32,000 nt of DNA from Candidatus Scalindua sp. Lineage in GTDB: Bacteria > Planctomycetota > Brocadiia > Brocadiales > Scalinduaceae. Numbering within the stretch: the stretch's first letter is position 1; every line of letters starts with the position of its first letter. The stretch lies in the NCBI GenBank assembly GCA_031316235.1, contig JALDRA010000002.1, forward strand, positions 1 through 32,000, written 5' to 3'. Positions 80 through 30,200 of this stretch are shown here, piece by piece. A model generated the notes under the pieces. The model did not search any database, was not told where the DNA came from, and saw nothing but the letters and a program-made list of their open reading frames with translations. The translations under genes were made by a program, and so were the position numbers.

Positions 80-2596
80 TCAACAACACGAAACACCCTC
101 TTCTGAAGTACTGCAACTGGATGATACATTACCCTTTCCATTAGGATTGTTAATGGTAAACTGACCAGTATAAGGTAGATTAGCGAGTTTTGCCGCTGTA
201 TCCGTGCATATTTCTACCGGCTCATTCCGGGGGAAGAGATGGCCTTCTTCATCGATAATAGCCTTATACGGGCCATGATAGATTGCCTTCTGCCCAACGT
301 ATACACACCCATCCTTCTTTTCAAACTTATATCCACGCACCGTTATAGAATGAAATGAATAGCCTTCCACATCTTTCCAGAACACCTTCGATAATGTCTG
401 AAGTCCGTAAAAACCAGCCTGTTCAAGATAGGCCATAAATTCATCTTCAGTAAGTGCGCCGCTGATACACTCGCCCCATAATTGCCTGTTAAGTTTAAGA
501 TGTGGGGGAGTCTCTGCCTGAGAGACAATATCAGATATTACAATCCTTCCATGGTCTTTCAGGATTCGCCACATTTCATTAAAAACCGCTTTTTTATCAG
601 GTGATAGATTAATGACACAATTTGATGTGATCAGATCAACAGTGCTATTATCAACCGGGATATCTTCCAGGAATCCCTTTCTGAACTCCACAATATCGTA
701 GCCGAGATTCTTTGCCACCAGATATCTGTTCTCGTCAGCAACCTTCAGCATTTCATCCGTCATATCAATTCCGTAAATCTTCCCCTTCGGGCCGACTTTT
801 TTAGCAGCAATGAAACAGTCAATACCCGCGCCTGCTCCCAGATCAACCATGGTCTCTCCCGGTAGAACCTCAGCAATAATTGTCGGACTCCCGCATCCAT
901 AGAACCTGTCCAATACTTCTTGTGGAATATGGCTGGTATCTTCCTGAGAATTCTTTGTCGGACAGCATAATTCCTCCTGAGGCTCTTCTGCCGCCTTACC
1001 GTAGAATTCACGCACGATACTCCTGGGCTTATCAACATCGAAAGAGAGTACACAGTTGGAATGAAGAGTGTAAACAGATTGTGAATCTGCAACCTGTTCA
1101 TCAGCGCCACAAACAGCCGCGCCATCACCCATCGATCTTAAAACAGTGGGGGCACTGAATCCTGTTTTTCTCTCCTGCGTTTTTTTCCTGACTTCGGCAA
1201 GCTCAAAGACAACATCCTTTGTTATTTTCTTGTGCAGATCACAATAAGGATCAAGAGCATGTATGCCGACGTTCTCGGGGAATTTATCTGTTTCAAGCTT
1301 GAACCCGTTCTCAGAGTAAAAGAATGAATGTTCAATGTCCCCGCCTCCACATATAAATTTAATATGACACTTGCTACACTTGTCTTTATTCTGAAGTGTC
1401 GCATTTCTGAATGCCTTGCTCATATTACTGTTTTCCCAGATTTCCCTGAGCGGATTATCAAGAACATTTCCACACCTCAGGCCTGCATGACCGGCAAATG
1501 AAGCAGAGGGATAAACGTCACCGTTTGAATATACACACATGCTGTCGTAACAGGCATTCCCCAAATCATAACGTGTGCCCCTGTTGCTGTTTGCCCTGAA
1601 TTTGTATGAATCATGGTTGTCAACTACAATACCTGATTCTCTGGCAACTTCCTTCACTTTTCCCGTTACTTCAATCACCCTATCTATCGGAGGAATGGAA
1701 TCAGTGCCATTGTCAGTTATCCTGCCCCTTTTATGAGCCCACAAAAGATGGTGGGTTTTTACTTCTAACAAAGCAAGCAATTTTGTCGTCTCCGGTATGT
1801 CATCTACGTTGCTGTTCGTAACGACCGTTGTTACCGTTGGAGAAAATCCGGCACCAACAATATTCTTAATCCCTTCAACGATCAGATTAAAACTACCTTT
1901 GCCTCTTAACGGATCATTGATCTCCGGCTTTGAGCCATCAAGGCTTATCTGGATCTTTAAGAGCTTTTTATCAAACTGTTGCAACTTTTCAATTGTTTCT
2001 CCCATCAGGAGCGTTCCGTTCGTAAGTATTATAAGTTCTGACTTTTTCTGGTTGCAGACATAATCGATAAGTTCAAAAATGTCCTTTCTCATGAGGGGCT
2101 CTCCTCCTGTAAAGTAAAAGCGGGATGTTCCCAATACCAGAGCCTCATCGATAATCATTTTGATGCTTTCAGTTGAAAGGCCCTTGTCCTCATTTGGTGA
2201 CGAATTCACCAGGCAATGTGAACATGTCAGATTGCATGAATTATTTGTGTGTATCCACAACTCATTGAGTTTGTCCACACGAATGAAATCTGCACGCCCC
2301 GTGTATTCGATCCTCTTTACCGGTTCTGATGTCAGAAATTCAGACCTTATCAGATCCTTCAGTAACGTATGAACTTCCAGCCATGCTCTGGTGTAGTCCA
2401 TATCAAAATTATTTGCATAGTTGTGCATCAGCTCCTTAACGTTTTTGCAATTCTTAATATCGTCTATGATCTGACTACCTCTTTTATCAGTAATAATCCA
2501 GTTCGGCATTTCGGGATCGAGAAACAGATGAAGAGAGTCCTGTTCTATATGATAATAATCAGGTGCGTAAAAAACCGATTTTTCGGTTATTTCCAT
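80..2596 (-). CDS. Fusion protein: PqqD/RRE-like N-terminal region + radical SAM (SPASM-type) + ArsM-family arsenite/SAM methyltransferase + Cys-rich C-terminal tail
   Basis: The ORF is open over 80..2650. I place the start at ATG 2596..2594 (MEITEKS...) because GGAGGT sits 10 nt upstream. CNLTCSHC is the CX3CX2C radical SAM cluster motif. The Cys-rich segment CYDSMC...LRCGNV...[13 protein letters not shown] is SPASM-like. The C-terminal half carries ArsM hallmarks: [22 protein letters not shown] (SAM motif I), [20 protein letters not shown] and WGECISGA. Confidence 0.85.
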
Positions 2597-2657
2597 TTTA
2601 ACTTCTACCTCCAATAAAACATTATGCAAGAAAAAGTAAAGCAATGCCACAAAGACA

Positions 2658-4091
2658 CTAAGTCACCAAGTCTATACTGGTCCTGATAGCTTTATACCTT
2701 TGTGGCAAAACGGTTTTTAACCATCCATAAATTAGCAGGACATAAAATGGGAGGTATTCCGGAAGCTTAAGCCAGTGCACTTCCTTCCATACCCATTCGT
2801 CATTGTACCATATCATTTTAGAAAACAATTCATGGCTCATAAAATAATAACAAATAACCGTTCCGGTCAGGACAAGCCACGCTCTGTTTTTGTTAAAACA
2901 GAGAAAGGGGATAATCCATGTCAGATACCACGGATGTAATGTTGGGGCCAATATTAAAAAAGTCCCAATAGCTATAAATACATAATGTAAGACAAAATTA
3001 TTCATCTTTATATTCCCTCTTTTTTCAGCTTCCTTTTTAGAGGAGGCAAGAGGAGGTTTTCCATTATTATGTATAATTAAAAGATTTAAATATTTTTTAT
3101 ATAAAATGAAAAGAACCGATCCAAAAATCAATGCTGTTACTATTCTAGATGCCACATGTGAGCCTATGCATAAACAGAAAATCAGGAAATGTGCAGAATC
3201 GTTAAAATGATACTGGGTCCCAAAATGGAAGAGAGTAGAAAACAGCCCGCTGCCGGCGCTGATATATGGTAAATACAAAACAGCTATAACGGCAAAAAAT
3301 ACTACAATATATTTACGTTTTTTACCTGGAATCAGAAAAGGTGCGACAATGATGAATATAAATTTGGACATTACTGCCAGGGCAATAGAAAAGACTGTTC
3401 CCAAATTTTTTCTAATCACACAGAGATACAACGCGAGTATAACAAAGAATATCTGAAGGGAATCACAATGGCCTCTTGCAGCAAAACTGAGAAGGATTAA
3501 CGGGCTCCACGCATATGTCAACACATTATGTGGATTTTTTCCCATCACCTTTAAAAACTTCAATAATATGAAAATTGACAGAACATCAAAGAACAGAAAA
3601 AAAGACTTCATTGATATTATAGTATGTGAAACATAATCGGCTACTGCGAACACCATAAGCGTAAGCGGTGGATAAATCGCAGGCAGATGTTTATGATTAA
3701 TATCAGAGAAAAAACTATCCCTGAGATGTTCCAGGCTTGAAGCTTCCGGTGGATGGGAGTAAGGACTTATCCCGTTTAACTGTAATTTTCCTTCCCATAG
3801 ATATCGATATATGTCGTCTGAAGGGGCAACCGGCAGAAGCGTAAGCCGAAATAGCAATGAAAAGATGATGATAGTCCAGAGAGCTGCAATCGAATTGTTG
3901 TTCTCCTGTTCATCCGACTCCTCATTCTTTGACATATAGAATATGGCAAATATATACGTAATAAATGAGGTAATGTACAAAATAGCAAAACAGGGAATAT
4001 TCTTTTTTATATCACCGATGTAAGCAATTACAATACAAAGGATTTCAATAATAAATCCTGTTATTAAAATGGTTATTAATTTCCTGTTCAT
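2658..4091 (-). CDS. Polytopic membrane glycosyltransferase, GT-C fold (DUF2029/GT87-like, polyprenol-phosphate-sugar dependent)
   Basis: The 477-aa ORF has about a dozen hydrophobic spans by eye. The first loop carries PSDDIYRYLWEGKLQLNGISPYSHPP, the acidic DD..RY..G....G..PY motif typical of this family. Confidence 0.6.
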   Translation of the reverse strand: MNRKLITILITGFIIEILCIVIAYIGDIKKNIPCFAILYITSFITYIFAIFYMSKNEESDEQENNNSIAALWTIIIFSLLFRLTLLPVAPSDDIYRYLWEGKLQLNGISPYSHPPEASSLEHLRDSFFSDINHKHLPAIYPPLTLMVFAVADYVSHTIISMKSFFLFFDVLSIFILLKFLKVMGKNPHNVLTYAWSPLILLSFAARGHCDSLQIFFVILALYLCVIRKNLGTVFSIALAVMSKFIFIIVAPFLIPGKKRKYIVVFFAVIAVLYLPYISAGSGLFSTLFHFGTQYHFNDSAHFLIFCLCIGSHVASRIVTALIFGSVLFILYKKYLNLLIIHNNGKPPLASSKKEAEKRGNIKMNNFVLHYVFIAIGTFLILAPTLHPWYLTWIIPFLCFNKNRAWLVLTGTVICYYFMSHELFSKMIWYNDEWVWKEVHWLKLPEYLPFYVLLIYGWLKTVLPQRYKAIRTSIDLVT

Positions 4092-4178: not shown

Positions 4179-4460
4179 TTACTCAATATCAAAGACTTCT
4201 GTTTCGGGATTGCAGTCTGACCAGATAAACCAGTAAACGTTTAGAAAATTGACATGCCGAAGCGTTTTGCCCATCATGCTCCATTTTATACCAATCCCGT
4301 TTTCCAGGTCCCACGTAGTATTTGTTGTGCTGTCTGTCGTATCATTCCTGTTTTTCTCAAATTTAATCACCGTTCTGTCTACCTGCCTGTCATAAACCTT
4401 AATAATACCGGTATCGTTATTCCTGTAAACGAGCAGATTCATACCGTCAAATTCATCAGT
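4179..4460 (-). pseudogene. C-terminal remnant (~93 codons) of a DUF3179-family gene, truncated at the edge of repeat copy 1
   Basis: The translation TDEFDGMNLLVYRNNDTGIIKVYDRQVDRTVIKFEKN...TTWDLENGIGIKWSMMGKTLRHVNFLNVYWFIWSDCNPETEVF matches the characteristic DUF3179 C-terminus by eye (D..T.S.W....G.....G..L ... fWFaW..f.PeT.v). The frame upstream runs straight into the repeat, and no N-terminal half is present. Confidence 0.5.
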
Positions 4461-4600
4461 TATACTAAAACCGATTTGGTTTTCGGTTTTACTGGAAACC
4501 AAATCTTGGTGAAGGTATCCCCGGACAAAAAGCGCCGAGGACTTGTACTCGCTCAATTTTATCTCGGATTTTATCCGAAATCCAGTATGAGATGAGTATA
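4461..4600 (+). repeat. Dispersed ~140-bp MITE-like element, copy 1 (full length, subfamily A). The + orientation is defined arbitrarily as TATACTAAAACC...GATGAGTATA
   Basis: It differs at 2 of 140 positions from copy 9 (23968..24107). It is intergenic, between the GT2 and GT-C genes. Confidence 0.95.
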
Positions 4601-4716: not shown

Positions 4717-6243
4717 TCAGCATTTTATTGTTTCATTAAACTTCTGAAAAAGAGAAAGCATGCCGACGTAAAGAAACCCGATCGCATACATCAACAGAAA
4801 AGGCCCGAATACAAATTTCTTATTACTCGTATATTGCATAAATCCTATGAAGCAATATACGCTTAAGAGTATTTCACTGATGAAGAATACCTGCAGTGGT
4901 AATGAGTAATTTTTTACCAGTATATTCCTGCCTCGATTGATCACACCGTACTTGGGCGTTCTAATAAAATCACTCTTGATATTAAACAGTGCTTCGAATA
5001 CCGCTTTTGTGTTATTAACAGCAATGCCACACCCTATAACCATAAGTGCGGGAATAAACAAACACCTTTTCTTCCAGTCTTTATAGCCCTTTTTCTGAGA
5101 AACTATATAAAGAAATGTAGGCGCAAATGCTCCCATGGATATTAAAAATATCAGGATTACCATTGTTAGAGAAACTGACATGTTACTGATCTGCTCTTTT
5201 AATAAAACGATGAGAGGAAAGGATAACAGGGCAAGCATAATCATCATTGGATGGACCATGTACTGGTTCAGGTGAATAAAGGCCTCTACCTTCTTTATCA
5301 GGCTATCGTTCGTCTTGAATATTTGAGGTAAAACCTTTTTAGCTGTCTGAATAGAACCCTTTGCCCATCTATGCTGTTGAGATTTATAGGCATTTATATC
5401 AACCGGCAGTTCTGACGGCGTGACAACATCAAACAGAAATTTAGTATTCCAGCCTTTTAATTGAGCTCTGTATGACAGCTCCAGATCTTCCGTCAGGGTA
5501 TCAAAATTCCACCCACCTGAGTCAATAATTGCCTCCCGTCTCCAGACCCCGGCAGTTCCATTAAAATTCATATATAATCCATTCCAGTTCCTGGCACCCT
5601 GCTCGATAATAAAGTGGCCGTCCATACCAATGCTCTGTACTATTGTAAGAAGAGAGAAATTTGGATTTATGTGCCCCCATCGTGTTTGAATAATGGCAAC
5701 TTTTGACCTTTCATAAAAGAAGGGAATAGTGTCATAAAGAAAATCTTTATCAGGTACAAAATCAGCATCAAAGATTGCCAGAAACTCACCTTCAGCCTTT
5801 TCCATGCCCAGGTTTAATGCCCCTGCCTTAAATCCATCTCTCGTGTCTCTGACAATATGATTTATGTTAAACCCTATCGCACGGTATTTATTAACCAGTT
5901 CAGATACAATGTCCCTTGTTTCATCATTAGAATCGTCCAGTACCTGTATTTCATGAAGCTCCTTCGGATAATCAATATTTATGACTGCCTTAATTAAACG
6001 TCCGACTACATGCTTTTCGTTATAAACGGGTAATTGTGTTGTAACTTTTGGCAGCATATCTTTGCTATGATTTGACCAGAATTGTTTAAGAAACTCCTGA
6101 TTCCCGGATGTTTCCTTCTTGACCTTCCTTAAAAAGAGATAAATCATATAATAATTATTGATGCCATAAAGGAAGAGCCATATCGCTGCAGGACAATAGA
6201 AAATAAGAATTATTATCAGCAATGTTTTGTTCATATAAATCAT
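4717..6243 (-). CDS. Processive family-2 glycosyltransferase (membrane-embedded beta-glycan synthase, CslA/cellulose-synthase-like)
   Basis: Motifs DDSND, FDADF (DxD), TEDLELS (TED) and QQHRWAKG (QxxRW) are present. One N-terminal and several C-terminal hydrophobic helices are visible. Confidence 0.85.
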   Translation of the reverse strand: MIYMNKTLLIIILIFYCPAAIWLFLYGINNYYMIYLFLRKVKKETSGNQEFLKQFWSNHSKDMLPKVTTQLPVYNEKHVVGRLIKAVINIDYPKELHEIQVLDDSNDETRDIVSELVNKYRAIGFNINHIVRDTRDGFKAGALNLGMEKAEGEFLAIFDADFVPDKDFLYDTIPFFYERSKVAIIQTRWGHINPNFSLLTIVQSIGMDGHFIIEQGARNWNGLYMNFNGTAGVWRREAIIDSGGWNFDTLTEDLELSYRAQLKGWNTKFLFDVVTPSELPVDINAYKSQQHRWAKGSIQTAKKVLPQIFKTNDSLIKKVEAFIHLNQYMVHPMMIMLALLSFPLIVLLKEQISNMSVSLTMVILIFLISMGAFAPTFLYIVSQKKGYKDWKKRCLFIPALMVIGCGIAVNNTKAVFEALFNIKSDFIRTPKYGVINRGRNILVKNYSLPLQVFFISEILLSVYCFIGFMQYTSNKKFVFGPFLLMYAIGFLYVGMLSLFQKFNETIKC

Positions 6244-6285: not shown

Positions 6286-6993
6286 CTACAAGTTGAGAAG
6301 AACCTGCTTATTCTCATTGTAATTGCTATCCAATCTTTCCCGCAACGCTTTCCCAAGTGACGTTGCCTTATCTATTGCTTCCGGCTGTTTTTCCAGACAC
6401 GGAATGATTTCAGGTGTAATTTTCACGTCCTCACCAAAAAACCGCTTTACACCACTGAAGCGGCAAACTTCGCCATAACCACACGAAAAGCATGCTACAG
6501 CACCTTGCGCGGCCACAACACCCACGCATTCAATCTCATTATAATCAAAGAACCCCTTGATATCATCACCTGCTATTTCATACATTTTTATGTTTCTTCC
6601 GGGCATTTCCCACTCTCCACCGCCGCCTACTGAGGCAATAGCCCCTATTTTACCGGAAAGCGTCATACCTCCATGCCCATCTTTATCGTGCCGAAAACAG
6701 TAAAATCGCTCAAGAAACGCGTGTGTGAGGGCATTAAGTCGTCCAAAATAATTAGGAGCTCCAATAACTAGAGCATCGGCTTCTAATACCTTGTGCATCA
6801 GGGGAATATAATCATCCCGGACTTTACACACATTATCCTCGATACAGCCAAGACAGCATGTGCAACCATTAATTGTCATATTATGTAAGGATATCAGCTC
6901 TGTTTCCAGGCCGGTTGCATCTAATACCGTCTTAACTAATTCTTCTGTCGTATGGCTCTTTCTCGGACTGCCACTAATACCAAGTACTTTCAT
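6286..6993 (-). CDS. Iron-sulfur flavoprotein / NADPH-dependent FMN reductase family (Isf-like)
   Basis: MKVLGISGSPRK...HTTE is the flavodoxin-like FMN-binding start. The compact Cys cluster CTCCLGCIEDNVC is typical of Isf proteins. The ORF is open to 7035, but ATG 6993 is preceded by GGGAGA and matches the family N-terminus. Confidence 0.7.
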   Translation of the reverse strand: MKVLGISGSPRKSHTTEELVKTVLDATGLETELISLHNMTINGCTCCLGCIEDNVCKVRDDYIPLMHKVLEADALVIGAPNYFGRLNALTHAFLERFYCFRHDKDGHGGMTLSGKIGAIASVGGGGEWEMPGRNIKMYEIAGDDIKGFFDYNEIECVGVVAAQGAVACFSCGYGEVCRFSGVKRFFGEDVKITPEIIPCLEKQPEAIDKATSLGKALRERLDSNYNENKQVLLNL

Positions 6994-7095
6994 TTTGTCA
7001 TTTCTCCCATATAATTTATCAATAGAACCAGACACTGATTATAATCATTTTCCCGCTCATATCAATATCCAAGCCATACCAGCTCCTTTTTGATA

Positions 7096-7359
7096 CTAAT
7101 GTAACAATTTTTCTAAAATCTCTTTGCTCGGAGGCCGGTTTTCCTTGTATCGTATCACTCCATTCTTATTCAGGATTATATTTAGCGGTATGCCTACAAC
7201 TTGATACAACCTTGCAACTTCAGCCTTAGAGTCAAGGACAACGGGATAGATTATCCGGTTTTTCTCTGCAAAAGATTTGACCTTTTTGTTACTTCCCTGA
7301 ATGTAAATACCTGACACCTTAAGGCCATCGTCTTTACGATTGCTGTAATATTCCTTAAA
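7096..7359 (-). pseudogene. C-terminal remnant of a TlpA/ResA-like thioredoxin-fold redoxin, lacking the signal peptide and CxxC region
   Basis: The open frame reads FKEYYSNRKDDGLKVSGIYIQGSNKKVKSFAEKNRIIYPVVLDSKAEVARLYQVVGIPLNIILNKNGVI... This corresponds to the second half of TlpA-like proteins. An in-frame TGA at 7362..7360 sits only 2 nt from the stop of the upstream gene, so there is no room for the N-terminal part. Confidence 0.6.
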
Positions 7360-7364
7360 TCATA

Positions 7365-8123
7365 TCATTTTTGTGCATTTAAGCCCCAATCGTAATCAAG
7401 ATACTTTACGGCAACTTCATTGTTCCTGACAAATTCTGCATCCTCAGGATTTAAATATCCAGCCACATACTCTTCTATCTTTTTCACATTCTTAAGGAAA
7501 TCGCCCTCGTACCATTTAAAGATATGAGAGAGATATAAGATACGGTTTTCCTTATCCAGATAATTTCTGCTCTTGTCATTAATAAATGACACCGCTTGTG
7601 CTTCAAGCTGCTCTTCCAGTTTTTCAACCTTGTATGTTTCTGGTAATAATTTCGGACAACTCATAGAAGCGCAATTAATAGCAAAATGTATCCTTGGTTC
7701 TCGAAATGCCTCTCTCAGCTTTTTATTTTCCAGTACTTGTAATGTAATCTCGCCAAGCTTTATCTCAAATTTTTTTCTCTTGAAAAAACTGTCAGGAAGC
7801 CAGCCCACATCACGAACACTCTTTATCGGATACTCATCCAGGACTCCCTTTATAACAAATGCGTTATACGCGTTTATCCAGAATGCCAGGCGATGTTTAT
7901 CGGAAGGGAGATCATCAGGATTTGTATGAGAAAGATACTCAAGATATTTCTTAATCTCATTATCTTTCTTCAGCCCCTTATAATCCACTAACCCCTCCTC
8001 TGAAACATAACGGCCCAGGAGCCCATCGAAGATTGAACCCGGATCATCCTGTTCAGATGCAGAAACCTTAATTGCCAGGCCATGAACTATTGTCAAAACC
8101 AGCATTAGTATAATGGTCTTCAT
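7365..8123 (-). CDS. DUF547 domain protein with N-terminal signal peptide
   Basis: MKTIILMLVLTIVHGLAIKVSA is signal-like. The LAFWINAYNAFVIKG and IHFAINCASMSCPKL motifs are typical of DUF547 (PF04784). Confidence 0.75.
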   Translation of the reverse strand: MKTIILMLVLTIVHGLAIKVSASEQDDPGSIFDGLLGRYVSEEGLVDYKGLKKDNEIKKYLEYLSHTNPDDLPSDKHRLAFWINAYNAFVIKGVLDEYPIKSVRDVGWLPDSFFKRKKFEIKLGEITLQVLENKKLREAFREPRIHFAINCASMSCPKLLPETYKVEKLEEQLEAQAVSFINDKSRNYLDKENRILYLSHIFKWYEGDFLKNVKKIEEYVAGYLNPEDAEFVRNNEVAVKYLDYDWGLNAQK

Positions 8124-8231
8124 TTTTATCTTTTCCTCATTTTGATTAGAAAATAGATTCCCGCTTAACAGATTGCGGGAATGATAGAGAAATGTTAAGT
8201 AGATAAGTCAGGCCGCAGTAGCGACATGACT

Positions 8232-8371
8232 TATACTCATCTCATACTGGATTTCGGATAAAATCCGAGATAAAATTGAGCGAGTACAAGTCCTCGGCGC
8301 TTTTTGTCCGAAGATACCTTCACCAGGATTTAGTTTCCGGTAAAACCGAAAACCAAATCGGTTTTAGTATA
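8232..8371 (-). repeat. Dispersed ~140-bp MITE-like element, copy 2 (full length, subfamily A)
   Basis: It aligns over its whole length with copy 1 in reverse orientation. It ends 1 nt from the stop codon (8375..8373) of the decayed oxidoreductase gene. Confidence 0.95.
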
Positions 8372-8372
8372 T

Positions 8373-8950
8373 CTAACCAAACCATCTTATCAACTTCTTG
8401 GTGACCTTGGGAATCCATCCGGAAAATATCTTTTCCGCATAGTACATGTTCGTTGTCCTTCTTACCGCTTGAGACAAGGTGGGATAGACATGTATGGTCT
8501 TTGTAATACTTCCCACCCCGAGATTATTCTGCATTGCCATTGCAAATTCGTGCAATAGCTCTCCACCCTGCGGAGCAAGAACATGAGCTCCCAATATTTT
8601 ACCCTTCTTCGTACAGACGATTTTAATAATCCCCTTATCCTCACCTTTCTCTTCGGATCATCATGCACACCAATCTTTGATATCACCTCTCTCATGTGGG
8701 TCATAATATTCTTAAAATCGAAGGAGATATCTGTATCATTCAAGCCGTATTCCTTAGACCGTTTAATGAGTAAAGCTGCTTTAGCGGACCGCACCAATGC
8801 CTTTGTGGGAACACATCCATAGTAGAGACAATCCCCTCCCAGCTTGTTTTTCTCAACCAGGGCTACTCTGGCGCCAAGCTGAATCGCTCCACTCGCAACG
8901 TTTAAACCTCCAGCCCCACCACCAATTACCGTAAGATCAAAATCTTTCAT
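8373..8950 (-). pseudogene. Pyridine nucleotide-disulfide oxidoreductase (dihydrolipoyl dehydrogenase/mercuric reductase-like) with a large internal out-of-frame deletion
   Basis: The N-terminal ~100 aa are present: DLTVIGGGAGG, and GGDCLYYGCVPTK as the redox-active CxxxxC. The C-terminal dimerisation segment is present too (EDKGIIKIVCTKKGKILGAHVLAPQGGELLHEF...YPTLSQ). The two lie in different frames and join near 8640-8660. About 300 codons of the FAD/NAD central region are missing. Confidence 0.75.
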
Positions 8951-9633
8951 AATATTATTTTCTCAGTTTTCTTAAATTTTTTATACATAGTTGGTACCAG
9001 GGAAATCAATATCAACAGCGAACCTGCAATAATCAAATTCGTCATTGCCTTTTTTCCGCTCCCTGTCATGCCACTGAGAAGAGCATCTGCAAAATAGGTA
9101 TAAATAAATGTGCCGGGCAACATGCCAAGGACTGAACCCAGCAAATAATCACGGTACTTAATCCTGGAAAGACCAGAGCCAAAGTTAAGTCCATTAAAAG
9201 GGACAAGAGGGATTAGCCTGAGTGTGAATATAAACCGGAAACCATGACCGGCAACTTTTTCATCAAAGGACTCTATCCTTCCATTCATAAGCCTTGCCAC
9301 GAAATCTCGCCCGAAGTATCTTGCCATCAAGAATGCAAGAGTAGCACCCAGATTAGAGGCCAATATGTTATAAAAACTACCCCATACCACCCCGAATATT
9401 GCCCCTCCGCACAAGGTTAAGAGTGAACCGGGTAACGCGAAAACAGATCCGATACCATAAATAATAATGAAAACGGGAGGTCCCCACCAATGTTCCCTGA
9501 ACCGAGAAAGAAGATCCAGAAGCACTTCCTTTTGGGTATATTGCGACAAGGAAGTATATCTGAACGCAAAGTACGCACCCGCAATAATAATTATCAGAAT
9601 TGCAAACTTTATAATTGATTTCTTGTTCGTCAT
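8947..9633 (-). CDS. TVP38/TMEM64 (DedA/SNARE-associated) family membrane protein
   Basis: The ORF is 228 aa with 5-6 hydrophobic spans. Motifs G.LLTLCGGAIFG and F..RLIPL.PFN..N...G (PF09335-like) are present. Its stop overlaps the downstream ATG as ATGA. Confidence 0.75.
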   Translation of the reverse strand: MTNKKSIIKFAILIIIIAGAYFAFRYTSLSQYTQKEVLLDLLSRFREHWWGPPVFIIIYGIGSVFALPGSLLTLCGGAIFGVVWGSFYNILASNLGATLAFLMARYFGRDFVARLMNGRIESFDEKVAGHGFRFIFTLRLIPLVPFNGLNFGSGLSRIKYRDYLLGSVLGMLPGTFIYTYFADALLSGMTGSGKKAMTNLIIAGSLLILISLVPTMYKKFKKTEKIIL

Positions 9634-9666
9634 AATCTTTCTCTCAAGCTTTCTTAAACATTCTCA

Positions 9667-10029
9667 TCATATCAATATTTTGTAACTTTGACACCATGAG
9701 GGTATACCGTAAGCATTAGCTTGAAGGTCATTTCATAAACACACCCTTTGCGTCTGCAATTCAGAAACAAGCTTCGATAGTCGTATAAACCAAGGTAAAT
9801 TCGTTGTTTGACAAATACCAATTTTGACAGGACCTGCAATACCAAAACAACCCGACAGAGGCGAAGATATTCTTCTCTTCTGTAAGAATTCACTGACAAT
9901 TATTTCAAGAGTAGGAGATTCCAGGCTCTTAAAAGTTTCCTCTTCAAGAATTTCTAAAACTGTTTCCGCAACTTCAAATAAAGCCAAACGTGTATTTGTT
10001 CCTCTGATATCACCGCACAAAACCTTCAT
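9667..10029 (-). pseudogene. glk: Glucokinase remnant: N-terminal ~98 codons, an in-frame TGA, 21 more homologous codons, then truncation
   Basis: MKVLCGDIRGTNTRLALF...GIAGPV...TTNLPW is the ROK-less Glk N-terminus. After TGA (9735..9733) the same frame continues NDLQANAYGIPS, the conserved NDf.A.ayg motif, and stops at 9669..9667. Roughly 200 C-terminal codons are absent. Confidence 0.7.
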
Positions 10030-13588: not shown

Positions 13589-14191
13589 TGAATATATCCA
13601 AAAACCTTGAGTGCAATCACTATGCTTGCGTGTACTCTACAGATTTTCTCAAAAAAAACAACTCCCATTTATACCCATGGAAATCAACCTGTGGAGATTT
13701 CTTCACCTCCTCCATAACCCATCTTTCATCTTTTCATGCAGGCTTACCTCACCGGTTCTGAATACACCGTGTCAGCAGTAAAAAGCAGAAAGGATAAAAT
13801 CAGGCAGCATAAAAAGTTTCCCCATAACACACCTCCATTGATTTAAATGCACTGTAAGAGAAACAGAAAGTAACAGAAAGGCGGCCAGGTGTCAATATGA
13901 CATAGGATGACATGAGGAAGAGGGGGCAGAAATAATAATCCGCGTTCAAACCAGGTGTCTTCAGGTTTACCCCTGAAAGATGATGAAGATCTCCTCCCGT
14001 AAAACATGAGGCTCCAGGACATTATCCGAAACATCTCCGCAAGGTATACAACGCGTTCAGCCTATGGAGAGATCTTTCGTGAATCCTCACCTGAATCGGG
14101 GAGAGGAGGTTGGTTACGTCATCATTGACACCTGCCGAGAAGGAAACCAATCGGGAGAAGAAAGAGAGAAGTTCTGGCGGGTCGATTCGCA

Positions 14192-15016
14192 CTACAGAGT
14201 ATAGTCCGGCTTTACCCCCAGCTTATCAGCGATGAGGGAATTAAGTGCCCCGCGTAAAGCGATCAGCTCTGACTCGTCCAGGTGATCAAACTGTGCCAGT
14301 TTTTCCCGTATCTCTCTGATGGCGGGACTTACCCTGCCTTGTACCTCCTTTCTGGAGGTCAGGAAGGCCGCCAGGTTGGCGATGAGAATACCCCATGTTA
14401 TCAACCCGGAAAGAATAAGCACGAGCCCGAAGATGTGCCCGACGACCGTGACCGGTGCAATGTCGCCATAGCCGGGTGTCATCCACGTTACCAGTGATGC
14501 ATAGAGAGCATCCCAGTAGGTATTGATTTTTTCATTTACCCCGCGTTCGTAGTAAAACAGGAGACCTGAAGAAGCAAGCATGATGCCCGTGAGCAAAAGG
14601 AGTATCCACTGCAGCCCGTTAAGCCTGGCGAACTGGGAGACGTTAACACCCAGCACATTGAGCGAGCTGATAACCCGCGCCAGGCGTGTAATCCTGGACA
14701 GCCTCAGGATGCGAACAAGCCGCGCCGCTCTCAGCCAGCGTATCACCGGCAGTATGGCGACGAGGTCAAGCCAGTGTTCCTTCAAATAGCCTAATCGAAA
14801 AGAAGAGATTGAAATGCGGGTGACGAATTCAAGGATAAAAAATACGGTGATGCCCGAATCTATGCTGCCAAGTATGGCGATTCCCCTGTCTGAAAAATGG
14901 AATATATCCGGAAGAAAACCGATGATAACGAAGATAATAGCAAGTCCCACCATGAACAATTCCCAGGCAGTCTCATACGTATCAAAAAAGTAGACAAGTA
15001 TTTTACGAAGTTTCAT
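14192..15016 (-). CDS. Voltage-gated potassium channel (6-TM Kv-like)
   Basis: The S4 segment RWLRAARLVRILRLSRITRLAR has Arg at every third position. The selectivity filter is TPGYGD. There are six hydrophobic segments. Sampled 60-nt lines give 53-57% GC, against roughly 40% in the flanks. Confidence 0.85.
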   Translation of the reverse strand: MKLRKILVYFFDTYETAWELFMVGLAIIFVIIGFLPDIFHFSDRGIAILGSIDSGITVFFILEFVTRISISSFRLGYLKEHWLDLVAILPVIRWLRAARLVRILRLSRITRLARVISSLNVLGVNVSQFARLNGLQWILLLLTGIMLASSGLLFYYERGVNEKINTYWDALYASLVTWMTPGYGDIAPVTVVGHIFGLVLILSGLITWGILIANLAAFLTSRKEVQGRVSPAIREIREKLAQFDHLDESELIALRGALNSLIADKLGVKPDYTL

Positions 15017-20302: not shown

Positions 20303-21688
20303 TCAGCCAACATTGTTATATTCCCTTACCCGGAATCGGACACCCAGCTCTTCGGCGATCTTCCTGCAGCTCTCAATGTCAACACCCGGTACGCTGACGA
20401 CAGAGACCATTACGTCGGGTATGAATTTCTTTGCCTTTTTGATAAAAGAGATCAGAGAGGCATAGGCATTACCATCATAAGGTTTACCATCAAATGAAGG
20501 CTGGCATAATCGTTCGTATTCATCAGCATTGTCAGTATTTAAACTTATGCATATGGTGTCTATCAACCCCTTCAGCTCTTCACAGATAGATCTGCCGTTA
20601 ATCAGATCCCCCAGGCCATTGGTATCAAGCCTCACTACCGCCCCCTTCTCTTTCAGATATCGGGCAACTGACGTTAACACATCCATTCTCTCCGTGGACT
20701 CTCCAAACCCGCAAAAAACAACTTCATCATATCCCGAAGGATCTCCGATAGCCGTTATCAACTCTTCTATCGTTGGCTCCTTTTCAAGACCAAGATAATA
20801 ACCCTTGACATAGGGAGCTGTTTCCCGGGAGCAGAAGACACAACGATTTGAACACCGGCTTGTTATGTTAAGATAAAGTGAGTTTCTAATTACATACGCA
20901 ATCTTCCCCCCTTGAGTATCGGGATGTCCGATACGGAAAAGATTCATGGCATTGTGAGTTGTAATTCTTTTAATGTCTTCAACGGAAAGTTTCTGCAGTT
21001 CGGCAAGGACAGGAATCACGTGCTCGAGATAAGACGGCTCATTTCGCTCTCCCCTCTTTGGTTGCGGGGCGAGAAAAGGGCAATCTGTTTCCAGAACCAG
21101 CCTTTCCACCGGCACTCTCCTGACAACCGCTCTTAGTGCTGTTGCCTTGGGAAATGTTACGGGTCCTGCAAATGAGATATGAAAACCCAGATCCAGAAAC
21201 TTCTCCGCAGTGTCCTTATCACCGCTGAAACAGTGAATGACACCTTCTATCTTCCCATCATAGGAACGAAGAATATCAAGACAGTCACTGCTTGCATCAC
21301 GGTTGTGAATGATAACAGGAAGTTTCATCCGCATTGCAAGTTCCAGATGCCGATGAAACAGCTTTTTCTGTTCATCAGGGCTGCTGCGATCACGGTAATA
21401 ATCAAGTCCTGTCTCACCGATGGCAACAATCTTTTCTTTTCCCGCTAAATTTTCCAGACAGGTCCAGTCATCTTCTGAAACATTTGACGCCTCATTTGGA
21501 TGGATTCCCGCACTCGCAAAAACCTCACTGAACCGCTGTGCAAGTTCAAGGGATCTCTTAGTTGACTTAACACTTACACCTACGTTGATAAAGTATTCAA
21601 CACCAACATTTTTTGCCCGTAATATTACCTCGTCAACTTCATTACGGTAGTCAGGAAAATCCAGGTGCGTATGCGTATCAATTATCAT
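20303..21688 (-). CDS. TatD-family metal-dependent hydrolase fused to a C-terminal radical SAM domain (TatD-associated rSAM type)
   Basis: The N-terminus reads IDTHTHLDF...GLDYY...HCFSG...ETDCPFLAP, which is TatD. The C-terminal ~190 aa carry CSNRCVFCSRE (CX3CX2C) and a small rSAM fold (FCGFGEST, RLDTNG). Confidence 0.8.
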   Translation of the reverse strand: MIIDTHTHLDFPDYRNEVDEVILRAKNVGVEYFINVGVSVKSTKRSLELAQRFSEVFASAGIHPNEASNVSEDDWTCLENLAGKEKIVAIGETGLDYYRDRSSPDEQKKLFHRHLELAMRMKLPVIIHNRDASSDCLDILRSYDGKIEGVIHCFSGDKDTAEKFLDLGFHISFAGPVTFPKATALRAVVRRVPVERLVLETDCPFLAPQPKRGERNEPSYLEHVIPVLAELQKLSVEDIKRITTHNAMNLFRIGHPDTQGGKIAYVIRNSLYLNITSRCSNRCVFCSRETAPYVKGYYLGLEKEPTIEELITAIGDPSGYDEVVFCGFGESTERMDVLTSVARYLKEKGAVVRLDTNGLGDLINGRSICEELKGLIDTICISLNTDNADEYERLCQPSFDGKPYDGNAYASLISFIKKAKKFIPDVMVSVVSVPGVDIESCRKIAEELGVRFRVREYNNVG

Positions 21689-24168: not shown

Positions 24169-24576
24169 ATGGACAAGAAAAAACTGGCGGTTATTCATAT
24201 TGTTAAGAAAGAATTATCTTTAAGCGATGAGGAGTACCGTAATATCCTTGAACGAGTAGCAGGTGTCCGTTCATCCAGGGATTTAACGGACAGCCAGTTC
24301 CAGAAGCTGATGCGCTATTTTGTCCGTACGATGCATTACCGTGTAACAGGTAAAGGGATCACCTTCCGGCAAAAATATTATATAAAACAGTTAAAAAAGG
24401 ATCTCGGCTGGGATGACTCCCATTTTCAAAACTATATAAACAAATATTTCCACAAGAGCGATATCGAAACCTATTCCAGGCACGATGCCAGCAATCTTAT
24501 AGTTGCATTAAACACCATCCTCAAGAGTTACCGTCCCACTCGAGGAAAGACCGGGCAAAAACATGGCATTGAATAG
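24169..24576 (+). CDS. GemA/Mu gp16-like protein (DUF1018 family, phage-derived regulator)
   Basis: KKKLAVIHIVKKELSLSDEEYRNILERVAGVRSSRDLTDSQFQKLMRYF follows the DUF1018 pattern (IHi.k..Lgl.d..YR..L....G..S...Lt..e...l...f). GAGGA lies 5 nt upstream of the ATG. Confidence 0.55.
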   Translation: MDKKKLAVIHIVKKELSLSDEEYRNILERVAGVRSSRDLTDSQFQKLMRYFVRTMHYRVTGKGITFRQKYYIKQLKKDLGWDDSHFQNYINKYFHKSDIETYSRHDASNLIVALNTILKSYRPTRGKTGQKHGIE

Positions 24577-27288: not shown

Positions 27289-30200
27289 CTACTCATTTAC
27301 TTCCAAACCTATAATAGGTGCAACGACTGCTGGTGTCTCTCCTTCCTGAGGCGCACCCACAATAACGGTCAACTCATGAGCCTCCCCACCCGCATACAAT
27401 GTTAACGTAGCTCTTCCTGCTCGCCCTGTTGCTATTGGCAAAACTGTCACAGTTTTACCCTGTGTAATAAGTAATTCTGTACCTATAGATATTACAGCAA
27501 CCTCACTAGCATCACTGGTATATGTTACAACTTCACCACCAACACCTGCCGGGGAAGATAGCAGTTCTACATTCAGGTTATATCCACTGTTCTCCCGCAA
27601 GAATACCAGTCCCAAGGATTGTGGCGCGTACACATTTAATCCTACAACAGGCGCCAGAACAGGTGGTATCTGCCCCGCTGAAGGGGATCCAACTATAACA
27701 GTCAGTAAGCGTATCTCATCGCCCACCTGCAATCTCAATATCGCTTTTCCGGAAACAAATGTCTTAATGATAAACTGGGCATCTGTTTCTCCCGATTGAA
27801 TCACTACATTTCCATCAACGCGTGCAACTTCGGATCTATCGCTCGTTATCGTTACCCTGGTCTCCTCGGTTGCAGCAGTGTTAAGTAATTTGAGGGATAT
27901 AACCTGTTCTCTGCCCACAGGAATAATCGTACTTCCCAGAGAGTTGAGAGTATTTACCACGATACCAACAGGTCTGGCAAAAACAGGTGGTATCCTATTC
28001 TCTGAAGGTGTTCCTACAATAACTGTCAGCAAGCGCACCTCTTCTCCTACCTGCAATTTCAATATCGCTTTCCCGGAAACAAATGTCTTAATGGTAAACT
28101 GGGCATCTGTTTCTCCCGATTGAATTACTACATTTTCATCAACACGCGCAACGTCAGGGTTATCGCTTGTTATCGTTACTCTGATATCCTCGGTTGCAGC
28201 AGTGCTAAGCAATTTGAGGGATATAATCTGTTCTCTACTCTCAGGAATAATTATACTTCCGACAGAGTTGAGCGTATTTACCACAACACCAACAGGTTTG
28301 GCAAAAACCATTAATTGCTGTTGAGACACGGGTTCGCTTACTGATATAACGGCCGCATCGACGCCGTTATTTGAACTCGCTACAATTGTTGTATTATTAC
28401 CGAGAACATTCGTTATATCAAAACTGTTTCCTCTCACTTGTACAGGAAGTTCTGTTTCGCCTGCCGTTATTCTTACAGAATTCTGAAGAGTAACCACATT
28501 TGAATTGACAGCTCTCAAGTCAACCGTTAGATCTTCGTTTAAAGGACTCGAAAGTAAGAGTTGCAGTGTCCCCATTCCTCCAACTGGTATTCCTAAGAGT
28601 TTTGGTCGAATACGAAGACCCACAACCACATGTACGACCACCTGATCCTGAGCAATTATATCCCCACGACTATTTCGTGCGGCTGCCGTAATGGTCAATT
28701 GCGATGTTGCAATTACTGTCGGTACCGTAAAGGTTGTTTTGTAAAATGGTCCGGGTACAGGAGGAAACTCCTGACCATTAACAGTAAAGGTAACCGTAGA
28801 AATTCCAAGCGATGTGCTTCCTCTTGCCTGCAGGAGAAGTTCTGAATTCTCAATCACGTTGTCACCATTTACAGGATTTGTTATGGCAAAGGTCCCTGTA
28901 GTAAACGTATATATTAATGGTCCTGCCAATGGATTACCATCAGCATCTACTAACTGGTTATCCCATACATCAGTTATACGATCAGTCAGTTGTATTGTTA
29001 TTACTGTGCTAAACGGAAGCGCATCGTCAGGTGTAAAAATAAGTCCCGTGTTACCATTAGTGAAACGAAGTTCTCCGGTTACTTCAGTACCTCCTGCTTT
29101 AAGAGCAAATGAAGAACTATCAACTGTCTCTGTTTTAACAGGTTCCGTAAATCTAATCTGAATTGTCGTAGAGACAGAAACCTCAGTAGCACCATCGTGG
29201 GGAAATACACTTAATACCTGCGGCGAAGTCTGATCTGGAGATTCAGTCGTAAAGAAAGTATTAATCTGCTCTTCTAGTGCATTCCCTGCAACATCAGTAA
29301 TATCAGTGGTCACCACAACTCGATACCGTGTATTAAAGGTAAGCTCATTATCCGGCATGATGGTAATTGTTCGTCCCGCATTAGTAATGCTTATGCTCGC
29401 ACTGACAGTGTCTCCGCCATCAGCCGTAAATAAAACAGTATTACTATTTACCGTATCTGGATTAAGGGCTTCATTCAAAGTAATCCGTATCGTTGGCATC
29501 GGTTCTACGTCAACAGCTCCAACTGGTGGATCTACTGAAACAAATTCTGGTGGAATAACATCTGCCACTCTTAAGGTAATCGATGAAGATTTCGAATTAC
29601 CGGCATTATCCCTTGCCGTAGCAGTAATATTGATAGAAGCATTTGTGGCTGCCGCTTCAGGTACAGTGAATTGAAATTCTCTGCTTATTGTTGTTATTGG
29701 ATCAAGAGTAACCGTTTCCTCAAAAGTAGCAGCGCCAGTTACCTTAAGTTCAATCTCTGTTATTCCCACGTTATCACCCGCAGTGACAGTTACCGTAACA
29801 TCCTGCTTGGGAACTACCTCTGAGTTATCGGCAGGTTTATCAATACCTACCGTCGGAGCCATTGGATCCGTTACCGAAACGGGGAGTGTCACAGGGGCGC
29901 TCAGATTGTCATTTGCATCCTTAGCAATGGCAGTCAGCATTATGGGAGAACCAATAAGGGAGACATCATTGGGAACACTCAAAGTAAACGTAGTAGAAAC
30001 GGAAGGATTCCCTGTCGCAAAATCTCTCGTTTCAGGCACGATCGTTCCTTTGTCCGAACTCAAAGTTATACGTTTGATTCCTACATTATCTGTAGCGTCA
30101 ACAACTATGTCCAGACCCTCACCGATACCAACTGATGTTAACCCATTTTGCGTATTCAAACGTGAAACAACCGGTGCAGCATTATCCCGTACTACCATCA

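Follow-up and report, generated by a model that had tools for sequence, protein, structure and literature searches.

A widespread fusion of a CteB-like radical SAM–SPASM module with an ArsM-type methyltransferase in Candidatus Scalindua and other bacteria: a candidate organoarsenical synthase

Introduction

To our knowledge, only two radical S-adenosylmethionine (SAM) routes to carbon–arsenic (C–As) bonds are known, those of ArsS and ArsL, and the steps that lead from methylated arsenic to arsenosugars, arsenolipids and arsenobetaine are largely without assigned enzymes. Both ArsS, which corresponds to the model TIGR04167 and was characterised from Synechocystis, and ArsL are partners of the As(III) SAM methyltransferase ArsM. 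ArsS adenosylates trivalent dimethylarsenic, DMAs(III), to 5'-deoxy-5'-dimethylarsinoyl-adenosine, DDMAA (PMC13598754). In the arsinothricin pathway the radical SAM enzyme likewise forms the C–As bond and ArsM methylates its product, ArsL being a separate, non-canonical radical SAM enzyme that transfers a 3-amino-3-carboxypropyl group (10.1101/2024.02.01.577332). [quoted passage not shown] (Planctomycetota; Brocadiia) in which a radical SAM enzyme and ArsM are joined in one polypeptide; it lies on the reverse strand at the beginning of positions 1 to 32,000 of contig JALDRA010000002.1 (assembly GCA_031316235.1), and this whole 32,000-nt stretch is referred to below as the window. Pairs of a radical SAM enzyme and ArsM have precedents in ArsS/ArsM and ArsL/ArsM; the novelty here is that an unrelated CteB-like module, composed of an RRE (recognition element of ribosomally synthesized and post-translationally modified peptides, RiPPs), a radical SAM core and a SPASM region, is fused to ArsM in the slot of ArsS.

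Compared with the ArsS system, the fusion has the same pairing of enzymes, a common accessory cassette (TIGR04282, TIGR04283, DUF547, a disulfide reductase and a VTT protein), the same N-to-C order as natural ArsS–ArsM fusions and an ArsM clade that is sister to theirs; it lacks the Cys-rich C-terminal domain of ArsS, having the RRE-like N-domain and SPASM instead, and its ArsM half is of the classical and not of the AsSugarArsM type. The sactipeptide and ranthipeptide maturases CteB (5wgg/5why), SuiB and SkfB have the same RRE/radical SAM/SPASM architecture and fold (phmmer E-value 5e-15), but the fusion is devoid of a precursor peptide gene, conserves the auxiliary-cluster cysteines only in part and carries ArsM in the same chain, and its context is one of arsenic, phosphate and thiol redox, whereas the maturases sit in RiPP clusters. 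Finally, canonical ArsM/AS3MT enzymes (CmArsM, 4fr0; CrArsM, 5evj; human AS3MT, 8xt7) match the C-terminal half in fold at 30–33% identity and have in common with it the SAM motif, the four cysteines and the C-terminal domain; unlike them, the fusion adds a 515-residue radical SAM module and an invariant terminal Cys pair and is not a member of ArsR operons.

Results

The fusion gene and its orthologues

The open reading frame (ORF) is uninterrupted, without internal stop codons, and spans 80 to 2650 on the reverse strand if read from the first GTG; the true start is predicted to be the ATG at 2596, which gives 838 residues, because GGAGG stands 11 nt upstream and orthologues start at the same point (MEI...). 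The deduced protein is 100% identical to one from a Candidatus Scalindua metagenome-assembled genome (MAG). A homologue search listed at least 120 clusters (defined at 90% identity), nearly all of them full length, with 52–91% identity and about 100% coverage, next to a few truncated partials. They derive from independent assemblies of Scalindua, other Brocadiia, Thermodesulfobacteriota, Nitrospinota, Latescibacteria and Zixibacteria, to which a reference-genome scan adds Nitrospirota, Acidobacteriota (Terriglobia, Vicinamibacterales, Thermoanaerobaculia), Gemmatimonadota, other Planctomycetota and Wallbacteria. As more than 100 independent full-length clusters share the architecture, a frameshift or assembly join is excluded, and the single polypeptide proposed in the first-pass annotation of this DNA, with its order of RRE-like, radical SAM, SPASM and ArsM segments, stands as described. 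The fusion is thus widespread rather than unique to this locus, and related fusions of other architectures exist as well (see below).

All four segments of the fusion are under purifying selection. Against the orthologue of S. japonica (Scalindua japonica), the ratio of nonsynonymous to synonymous substitution rates (dN/dS) was 0.08 overall and 0.11, 0.09, 0.10 and 0.06 for the RRE-like domain, the radical SAM core, SPASM with its extension, and ArsM, respectively. An alignment of 26 diverse orthologues, from which all residue conservation given here was read, showed the radical SAM cysteines, C354, GGGD (417–420), H423, C496, H512 and C515 to be invariant, together with the four ArsM cysteines, the SAM motif, C764, C797 and the terminal CC. 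The AlphaFold2 (AF2) model of the whole protein reached a mean predicted local distance difference test score (pLDDT) of 82.8 and a predicted template modelling score (pTM) of 0.73.

One Gemmatimonadota orthologue (locus L017; such handles denote the individual loci compared) has an in-frame TAG at 8892–8894, which coincides with the variable DPY[C/Y/S] column separating the halves. A genuine gene split, a nonsense mutation and a sequencing error could each account for it; selenocysteine recoding was ruled out, as the stop is TAG at a variable column and not TGA.

Table 1. Position of the fusion gene, its predicted segments and motifs, and the neighbouring genes in the window (all on the reverse strand).
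Feature	Residues	Position (nt)	Strand	Basis or remark
Fusion gene, RRE-like / radical SAM / SPASM / ArsM	838 aa	80..2596	-	Complete; stop codon 80-82
Shine–Dalgarno sequence GGAGG		2608..2612	-	11 nt upstream of ATG 2596; sequence read
RRE/PqqD-like winged helix	1-90	2327..2596	-	AF2 fold, orthologue PqqD matches, profile match to TbiB1
Radical SAM core	106-340	1577..2281	-	Pfam PF04055; CNLTCSHC motif at 2213-2236
SPASM/twitch-like auxiliary region and conserved extension	341-515	1052..1576	-	Pfam SPASM, conservation, Foldseek
Predicted full ArsM-type As(III) SAM methyltransferase	516-823	128..1051	-	PDB phmmer, Foldseek, NCBIfam
ArsM SAM motif DLGAGAGID	585-593	818-844	-	
ArsM cysteine codons	C544/C545; C568; C660; C710	962-967; 893-895; 617-619; 467-469	-	
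Cys-rich tail, predicted disordered	824-838	83..127	-	pLDDT <50; terminal CC at 83-88
GT-C membrane glycosyltransferase (MptA/B-like)		2658..4091	-	Weak TIGR03459 match; upstream, co-directional, 62 nt from fusion start
DUF3179 remnant		4191..4463	-	Only residues 256-346 of the 347-aa S. japonica orthologue left
Membrane GT2 glycosyltransferase (CelA/PgaC/GT21-like)		4717..6243	-	Also next to fusion in S. japonica and Scalindua AMX11
NADPH-dependent FMN reductase		6286..7035	-	Generic Pfam FMN_red
DUF547 protein		7365..8123	-	Most constant fusion neighbour in Planctomycetota
Pyridine-nucleotide disulfide oxidoreductase remnant		8376..8950	-	Residues 102-383 deleted internally
VTT/DedA-family membrane protein		8947..9633	-	Cassette member

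The ArsM-type half

By sequence, the C-terminal half is a complete ArsM-type enzyme with every residue known for As(III) binding and methylation, and is predicted to be active. Pfam Methyltransf_31 matches residues 580–728 with 113 bits, phmmer against the PDB retrieves 5evj, 8xt7 and 4fr0 with E-values of 1e-37 to 1e-39, and Foldseek aligns the model with ArsM/AS3MT structures at an E-value of 1e-20 and a template modelling (TM) score of 0.62–0.64 normalised to the target. The four cysteine sites named in the first-pass annotation were confirmed, namely C544/C545 (LCC), C568 (GCG), C660 (SNC) and C710 (GEC), with a spacing of 23/92/50 from C545 to C710: C568, C660 and C710 align residue for residue with C72, C174 and C224 of CmArsM (4fr0), the last interval being identical (50) in both proteins, and the C544/C545 pair aligns with the first Cys of CrArsM (5evj). 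By this alignment the pair supplies the fourth, N-terminal cysteine of ArsM (equivalent to C44), which in the established ArsM literature is needed for the first methylation of As(III). The C-terminal domain (residues 648–829) is also aligned by NF040538, the model of the arsinothricin-type ArsM.

Neighbour joining of ArsM cores groups the ArsM halves of the fusions in one clade, whose sister clade contains the ArsS-fused ArsM of L111, the short radical SAM–ArsM fusion of L035 and four standalone ArsMs; both lie apart from the classic ArsR-linked ArsM clade.

The RRE-like, radical SAM and SPASM half

Sequence comparison and structure prediction characterise the N-terminal half as a CteB-like RRE/radical SAM/SPASM enzyme. 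Its Foldseek neighbours are CteB, SuiB, anSME and PqqE; the alignment to CteB covers about 490 columns with a TM score of 0.71–0.73 normalised to CteB, exceeding the span of the CteB radical SAM and SPASM parts alone, and the phmmer alignment to CteB begins at residue 40 of the fusion. NCBIfam places it with SPASM enzymes (AhbD, NirJ2, the mycofactocin maturase, sactipeptide maturases), all of them far under their cutoffs. The radical SAM core, first recognised by its CNLTCSHC motif (residues 121–128), is matched by Pfam Radical_SAM (PF04055) over residues 118–274 with 90 bits, and C121, C125 and C128 are invariant. The SPASM region proposed behind it was borne out by Pfam SPASM (PF13186; residues 350–411, 35.6 bits against a cutoff of 21.5), but the seven-cysteine motif by which such enzymes ligate two auxiliary [4Fe-4S] clusters is only partly conserved. 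Here C354, GGGDxxH (417–423) and the C496/H512/C515 set are invariant, whereas the CxxCx5C cysteines (407–416), present in the window protein, are missing in 4 of the 26 orthologues, and the last Cys position of a CxxCx5CxxxC pattern is occupied in the family by the invariant Asp of GGGD. A full two-cluster SPASM is therefore not a family constant.

The N-terminal domain is RRE-like by homology at the level of the family and by its predicted fold, a winged helix in which strands 15–19, 22–27 and 32–36 are followed by helices 38–49, 53–63 and 68–84 (pLDDT 84–94). Its invariant residues are D27, P31-N32-W33, G40 and Y60. The PqqD/RRE assignment made by eye in the first-pass annotation holds for the family, as Pfam PqqD (PF05402) matches 20 of 26 orthologous N-termini (best E-value 1.1e-8) and precomputed PF05402 matches are listed for several homologues, but not directly for the window copy, whose first 108 residues gave no match to this model at E ≤ 1. 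A profile of the family had the lasso-peptide RRE TbiB1 as its top PDB match (E-value 0.045, 69 aligned residues). At the other end of the protein, the Cys-rich tail is present as described and terminates in C837/C838, invariant in 26 of 26 orthologues; a swinging-arm role for it is possible.

Relation to ArsS and the arsenosugar-type cassette

The first-pass annotation could not map the fusion to any characterised system. Gene context now places the family in one, as it appears to occupy the ArsS slot of a TIGR04282/TIGR04283 arsenosugar-type cassette. A metagenome scan was anchored on TIGR04282, and loci of at least 6 kb were counted: among 38 such loci, TIGR04283 occurred in 25, DUF547 in 15, the reductase in 10 and VTT in 8, and this recurrence indicates that TIGR04282, TIGR04283, DUF547, the reductase and VTT form one cassette. 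A radical SAM gene of about 350 aa was situated immediately upstream of TIGR04282 in 17 loci, and those representatives of it that were scanned pass the ArsS model TIGR04167 (362–451 bits; cutoff 300). When TIGR04282 loci of at least 6 kb were pooled (n = 48, from two differently anchored samples and ±10 kb around the anchor), 17 contained ArsS, 11 the fusion, none both and 20 neither, with similar accessory genes in the ArsS and fusion groups; ArsS cassettes hold the same set as fusion cassettes, except for DUF3179. The correspondence can be read from the gene orders DUF547-T04283-PyrRedox-VTT-[ArsS-ArsM]-T04282 in L111 and T04282-[fusion]-VTT-PyrRedox-DUF547-PHO4 in L122.

The radical SAM half itself is not of the ArsS type, in agreement with the first-pass annotation. 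ArsS orthology was rejected, as only a core of 149–160 residues aligns at 20–21% identity (BLASTP, hhalign), with profile–profile comparison covering 160 core columns at 20% identity; TIGR04167 is also absent among the 25 best NCBIfam matches listed for the fusion protein. Two loci that had come up as ArsS-containing, L035 and L032, were rejected as weak cross-matches of the radical SAM core, and L035 is assigned as a short radical SAM–ArsM fusion because its TIGR04167 score is only 61 bits (cutoff 300).

Natural fusions of true ArsS (TIGR04167, 363–399 bits) with ArsM in one polypeptide were observed in L111 (8173–9990) and L169 (7957–9993), immediately upstream of TIGR04282 and in the same radical SAM-to-ArsM order as in the fusion studied here; a description of them was not found in the literature searched.

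Gene neighbourhood across phyla

The fusion gene ends 79 nt from the window edge and the sole exact-match record is a 3 kb contig, so that its context was read from S. japonica and relatives. Neighbours were counted by a two-round tblastn census, which replaced an unsupervised ORF clustering that under-detected them in high-GC genomes, in 34 fusion loci and 53 ordinary ArsM loci from the same scan. At least one of TIGR04282, TIGR04283, VTT, PyrRedox, DUF547, DUF3179, PHO4 and Pst was found in 25 of the 34 fusion loci, and the same families 0–2 times each in the 53 ordinary ArsM loci, whereas ArsR accompanied 33 of the 53 ordinary ArsM genes and 2 of the 34 fusions. TIGR04282 and VTT/DedA were each detected in 10 fusion loci, TIGR04283 in 9 (two of which, in the window and L002, are cross-matches of a large family 2 glycosyltransferase, GT2), DUF547 in 8 and DUF3179 in 4, and phosphate/arsenate transporter genes directly adjoin the fusion in 8 loci. 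An arsQML-like context was not seen in any fusion locus.

TIGR04282 and TIGR04283 are families named arsenosugar biosynthesis glycosyltransferases. Two DUF2064 neighbours were scanned and pass the TIGR04282 cutoff (206–212 bits against 134), and the one GT2 neighbour scanned passes that of TIGR04283 (238 bits against 182). Deltaproteobacterial loci run through ArsR, the fusion, the DUF2064 protein, PstSCAB and a phosphate porin to a redoxin and DsbD, and another locus reads DUF3179, methyltransferase, GT2, VTT, disulfide reductase, fusion and DUF2064. The cassette is rich in predicted thiol-redox proteins, comprising the disulfide reductase, redoxin/DsbD, DUF547 and DUF3179; DUF547 is fused to glutaredoxin in plants (PMC13621322), and DUF3179 is known as a UxxC selenoprotein (PMC9312934). 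At a single locus, L008 of Zixibacteria (8054–9899), a nucleoside phosphorylase-like gene and a PiT (PHO4) transporter gene are positioned directly upstream of the fusion, and this phosphorylase could process an adenosylated arsenical.

In anammox and other Brocadiia loci, DUF547 lies directly upstream of the fusion and is often preceded by HMA, an extracytoplasmic function (ECF) sigma factor, a zf-HC2 anti-sigma factor, VTT and the reductase; TIGR04282 and TIGR04283 were not found within 10 kb of the fusion in any anammox locus examined. The ECF sigma and zf-HC2 genes precede the cassette in L003 (5092–7079), L172 (5175–7093) and L171 (7809–9136), with a small HMA heavy-metal-binding protein gene also upstream in L003 and L172, and this set may be a thiol- or metalloid-responsive regulatory module.

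Wider superfamily of radical SAM–ArsM fusions

When the N-terminal half alone was searched against 1.8 billion representative proteins, its nearest relatives (36–46% identity) were mostly fused forms of about 820–850 aa, with some standalone proteins of about 475–520 aa. An ArsM-like region was present in 49 of the best 150 representatives, about 40 of which keep the equivalents of C72, C174 and C224. Members of the same radical SAM clade, at 30–46% identity to the fusion, also occur fused to ArsM-like domains with conserved cysteines, in three or more further architectures, of which one has the reversed order. The forms of about 1020–1080 aa (P0131, P0165, P0176) have a C-terminal DUF5714 added and lack the first Cys pair, with the other three cysteines kept; those of about 705 aa (P0151, P0152, P0154) begin with the methyltransferase, followed by radical SAM–SPASM; and those of about 715–745 aa have a non-ArsM Methyltransf_11 domain. 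That radical SAM and ArsM domains have been joined repeatedly, and in either order, speaks for coupled action of the two on a common substrate.

The locus in the Scalindua window

Within the window, the genes upstream of the fusion combine a reduced cassette with two glycosyltransferases (Table 1). The S. japonica orthologue of the GT-C gene is annotated as PF26314 MptA_B_family, and a GT-C homologue also occurs in L122. The FMN reductase was considered as ArsH and rejected, with no NCBIfam match at E ≤ 1e-5; the best promoter-like site (7065->7038, 11/12, a consensus match only) is placed just upstream of it. The reductase remnant joins residues 1–101 to 384–474 of a 474-aa orthologue, with 82% identity to L003, and the gene is intact (474–475 aa) in L003, L007 and L172. 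Because Scalindua AMX11 (L170) has a 62-aa reductase remnant at the same place, this decay is a lineage feature and not an assembly error. The cassette in Scalindua thus appears reduced and combined with GT2 and GT-C, and its final product may differ from classical arsenosugars; the two glycosyltransferases may take the downstream role of the arsenosugar type, or genes outside this region may fill it.

The segment 7365–9633 compares with 7089–9985 of the Brocadiia MAG locus L003 at 81% identity for VTT, 82% for the reductase remnant and 71% for DUF547, while the adjacent fusion proteins reach only 57%; such a mismatch in divergence suggests that the fusion and its neighbours do not share one history.

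Farther along the window, a second unusual fusion of 461 aa (20303–21688, reverse strand) carries a TatD-type hydrolase domain N-terminally and a radical SAM domain C-terminally. Other observations are an isolated phage Mu GemA-like ORF (24169–24576, forward strand) with no obvious prophage genes around it, a 1559-aa protein composed mostly of Big_5 and Big_7 bacterial Ig-like repeats (27289–31968, reverse strand), and a local GC peak at 14001–15000 (0.505; about 0.42 elsewhere), overlapping the gene of a 274-aa ion channel (14192–15016). Scans of the window for tRNA and Rfam families gave no match.

Discussion

Judged from domain content and gene context, it is on balance probable that the fusion is a bifunctional organoarsenical synthase whose radical SAM module, not orthologous to ArsS, has taken the place of that enzyme, and likely that its function concerns arsenic at all. 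The ArsM half would methylate As(III), most likely as far as DMAs(III), and keep the product bound to its cysteines, and the radical SAM half would then form a further C–As bond in the role of ArsS, by which DMAs(III) is adenosylated; that its product is the very adenosylated arsenical made by ArsS is a plausible but somewhat doubtful extension. The neighbouring thiol-redox proteins would keep the arsenic-binding cysteines reduced, and the link with phosphate transporters would tie the pathway to arsenate entering during phosphate uptake. The first-pass annotation had suggested that the protein could make a new organoarsenical, a proposal strengthened here by the arsenosugar-type gene context, and had treated the fusion as outside any characterised family, with which the present results agree: no curated NCBIfam model passes its cutoff, and no published description of the fusion was found in the literature searched, prior mention in subscription journals being possible.

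Several observations weigh against this explanation. The radical SAM half is similar to enzymes for hydrogen abstraction from peptides, and the RRE-like domain with its invariant PNW strand is retained, which an enzyme adenosylating a small arsenical would not obviously need. With the arsenite methyltransferase model PRK11873 the protein reaches 239.8 bits and falls narrowly short of the cutoff (263), the domain being embedded in a fusion, and the tree of ArsM cores was built by neighbour joining, with no bootstrap support. As to context, 9 of the 34 fusion loci show no cassette gene, the exclusivity of ArsS and the fusion refers to the ±10 kb of the two samples and not to whole genomes, and the arsenosugar names of TIGR04282 and TIGR04283 were themselves assigned by association with ArsS. 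Moreover, no TIGR04282, TIGR04283, ArsR, PHO4 or Pst gene was found in the window and two of its cassette genes are remnants, so that the arsenosugar link rests on orthologues in other phyla.

The resemblance to peptide maturases leaves room for a different use of the same two halves. Capture of a carbon radical by arsenic in a sactisynthase-like reaction is possible, the radical being generated on an RRE-bound peptide or protein (maybe the fusion's own tail), a sugar or a lipid, with the arsenic delivered by ArsM; we regard this version as unlikely. If true, it would be a previously unknown kind of enzymatic C–As bond formation and would imply a new class of organoarsenicals from anammox bacteria and many soil and sediment anaerobes.

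Unlikely, too, is sactisynthase-like chemistry on a peptide or protein. The RRE would bind the substrate, either a separate peptide or the enzyme's own Cys-rich tail, the radical SAM/SPASM half would remove a hydrogen atom from it, and the carbon radical so formed would be captured by sulfur or by arsenic coming from the ArsM half, yielding a peptide-bound thioether or organoarsenical. This reading agrees with the proximity of the N-terminal half, RRE included, to CteB, SuiB and SkfB in sequence and fold, with the purifying selection on the RRE-like domain, and with the predicted disorder of a tail that ends in an invariant CC; furthermore, the invariant PNW sits on a strand whose counterpart in known RREs pairs with leader peptides. 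However, no conserved small ORF was found within 2 kb of the fusion in 32 loci, where the best precursor 'families' extended to 3 loci only and lay antisense to conserved genes as shadow ORFs. Typical RiPP partners such as a protease or a transporter do not recur, the four members mentioned above dispense with the SPASM CxxCx5C cysteines, and the context is one of arsenic, phosphate and thiol redox.

Plain detoxification is improbable. Here the ArsM half alone would act on arsenic, giving volatile or exported methylarsenicals, and the radical SAM half would be supporting or unrelated, providing for example anaerobic electron supply, enzyme maturation or the cleavage or rearrangement of methylarsenicals. 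Such a role would suit an ArsM half that is nearer to classical ArsM (PRK11873, 240 bits) than to the arsenosugar-type model AsSugarArsM (162 bits), as well as the existence of standalone ArsMs about 50% identical to it, two of which (L038, L039) adjoin ArsR. It is difficult to reconcile with the rarity of ArsR and other ars resistance genes near the fusion (2 of 34 loci, against 33 of 53 for ordinary ArsM), with the recurrence of radical SAM–ArsM fusions in several architectures and both orders, and with the conservation of, and selection on, all radical SAM residues.

A role outside arsenic metabolism, in envelope lipid or glycan modification, in ladderane synthesis or in the methylation of another metalloid (Sb, Se, Te, Hg), appears very unlikely. 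The immediate neighbours in the window and in S. japonica are indeed membrane glycosyltransferases, and radical SAM enzymes and SAM methyltransferases are classic ladderane candidates (PMC2649909, PMC9821293). Those candidates lie in type II fatty acid synthesis (FASII) clusters in anammox bacteria (PMC2649909), but no FASII genes adjoin the fusion in the window, in S. japonica or in the other anammox loci examined, and the family is also frequent in Acidobacteriota, Gemmatimonadota, Nitrospirota and Thermodesulfobacteriota, whereas ladderanes are reported only in anammox bacteria; the ladderane role was rejected on this context and spread. In addition, GT2 and GT-C neighbours occur in Scalindua and L122 only, none of the four As(III)-binding cysteines varies among the orthologues, and phosphate/arsenate transporter genes directly adjoin the fusion in several loci. 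Methylation of a radical-generated intermediate on a peptide, lipid or glycan, the other option of the first-pass annotation, finds neither a conserved precursor-peptide ORF nor a FASII context in its favour.

An artefact, that is, two separate genes merged by a sequencing frameshift or an assembly chimera, can be dismissed as next to impossible, for although the relative L017 has a TAG between the halves, the same continuous architecture comes from many assemblers and phyla, the ORF has no stop codon, the linker between the halves is conserved with invariant C496, H512 and C515, and the AF2 model is confident overall.

If the fusion is a bifunctional organoarsenical synthase, the family would add a third catalytic solution to the formation of C–As bonds, unrelated to ArsS beyond the radical SAM core, hard-wired to ArsM and widespread in anaerobic and micro-oxic lineages. 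It would predict the synthesis of complex organoarsenicals in oxygen-minimum zones, sediments, groundwater and soils, tied to phosphate uptake, and it would make the roles of the conserved partner genes (DUF547, VTT/DedA, the disulfide reductase, DUF3179 and TIGR04282/TIGR04283) testable. For radical SAM enzymology, it would mean that an RRE–SPASM scaffold has been recruited outside RiPP biosynthesis.

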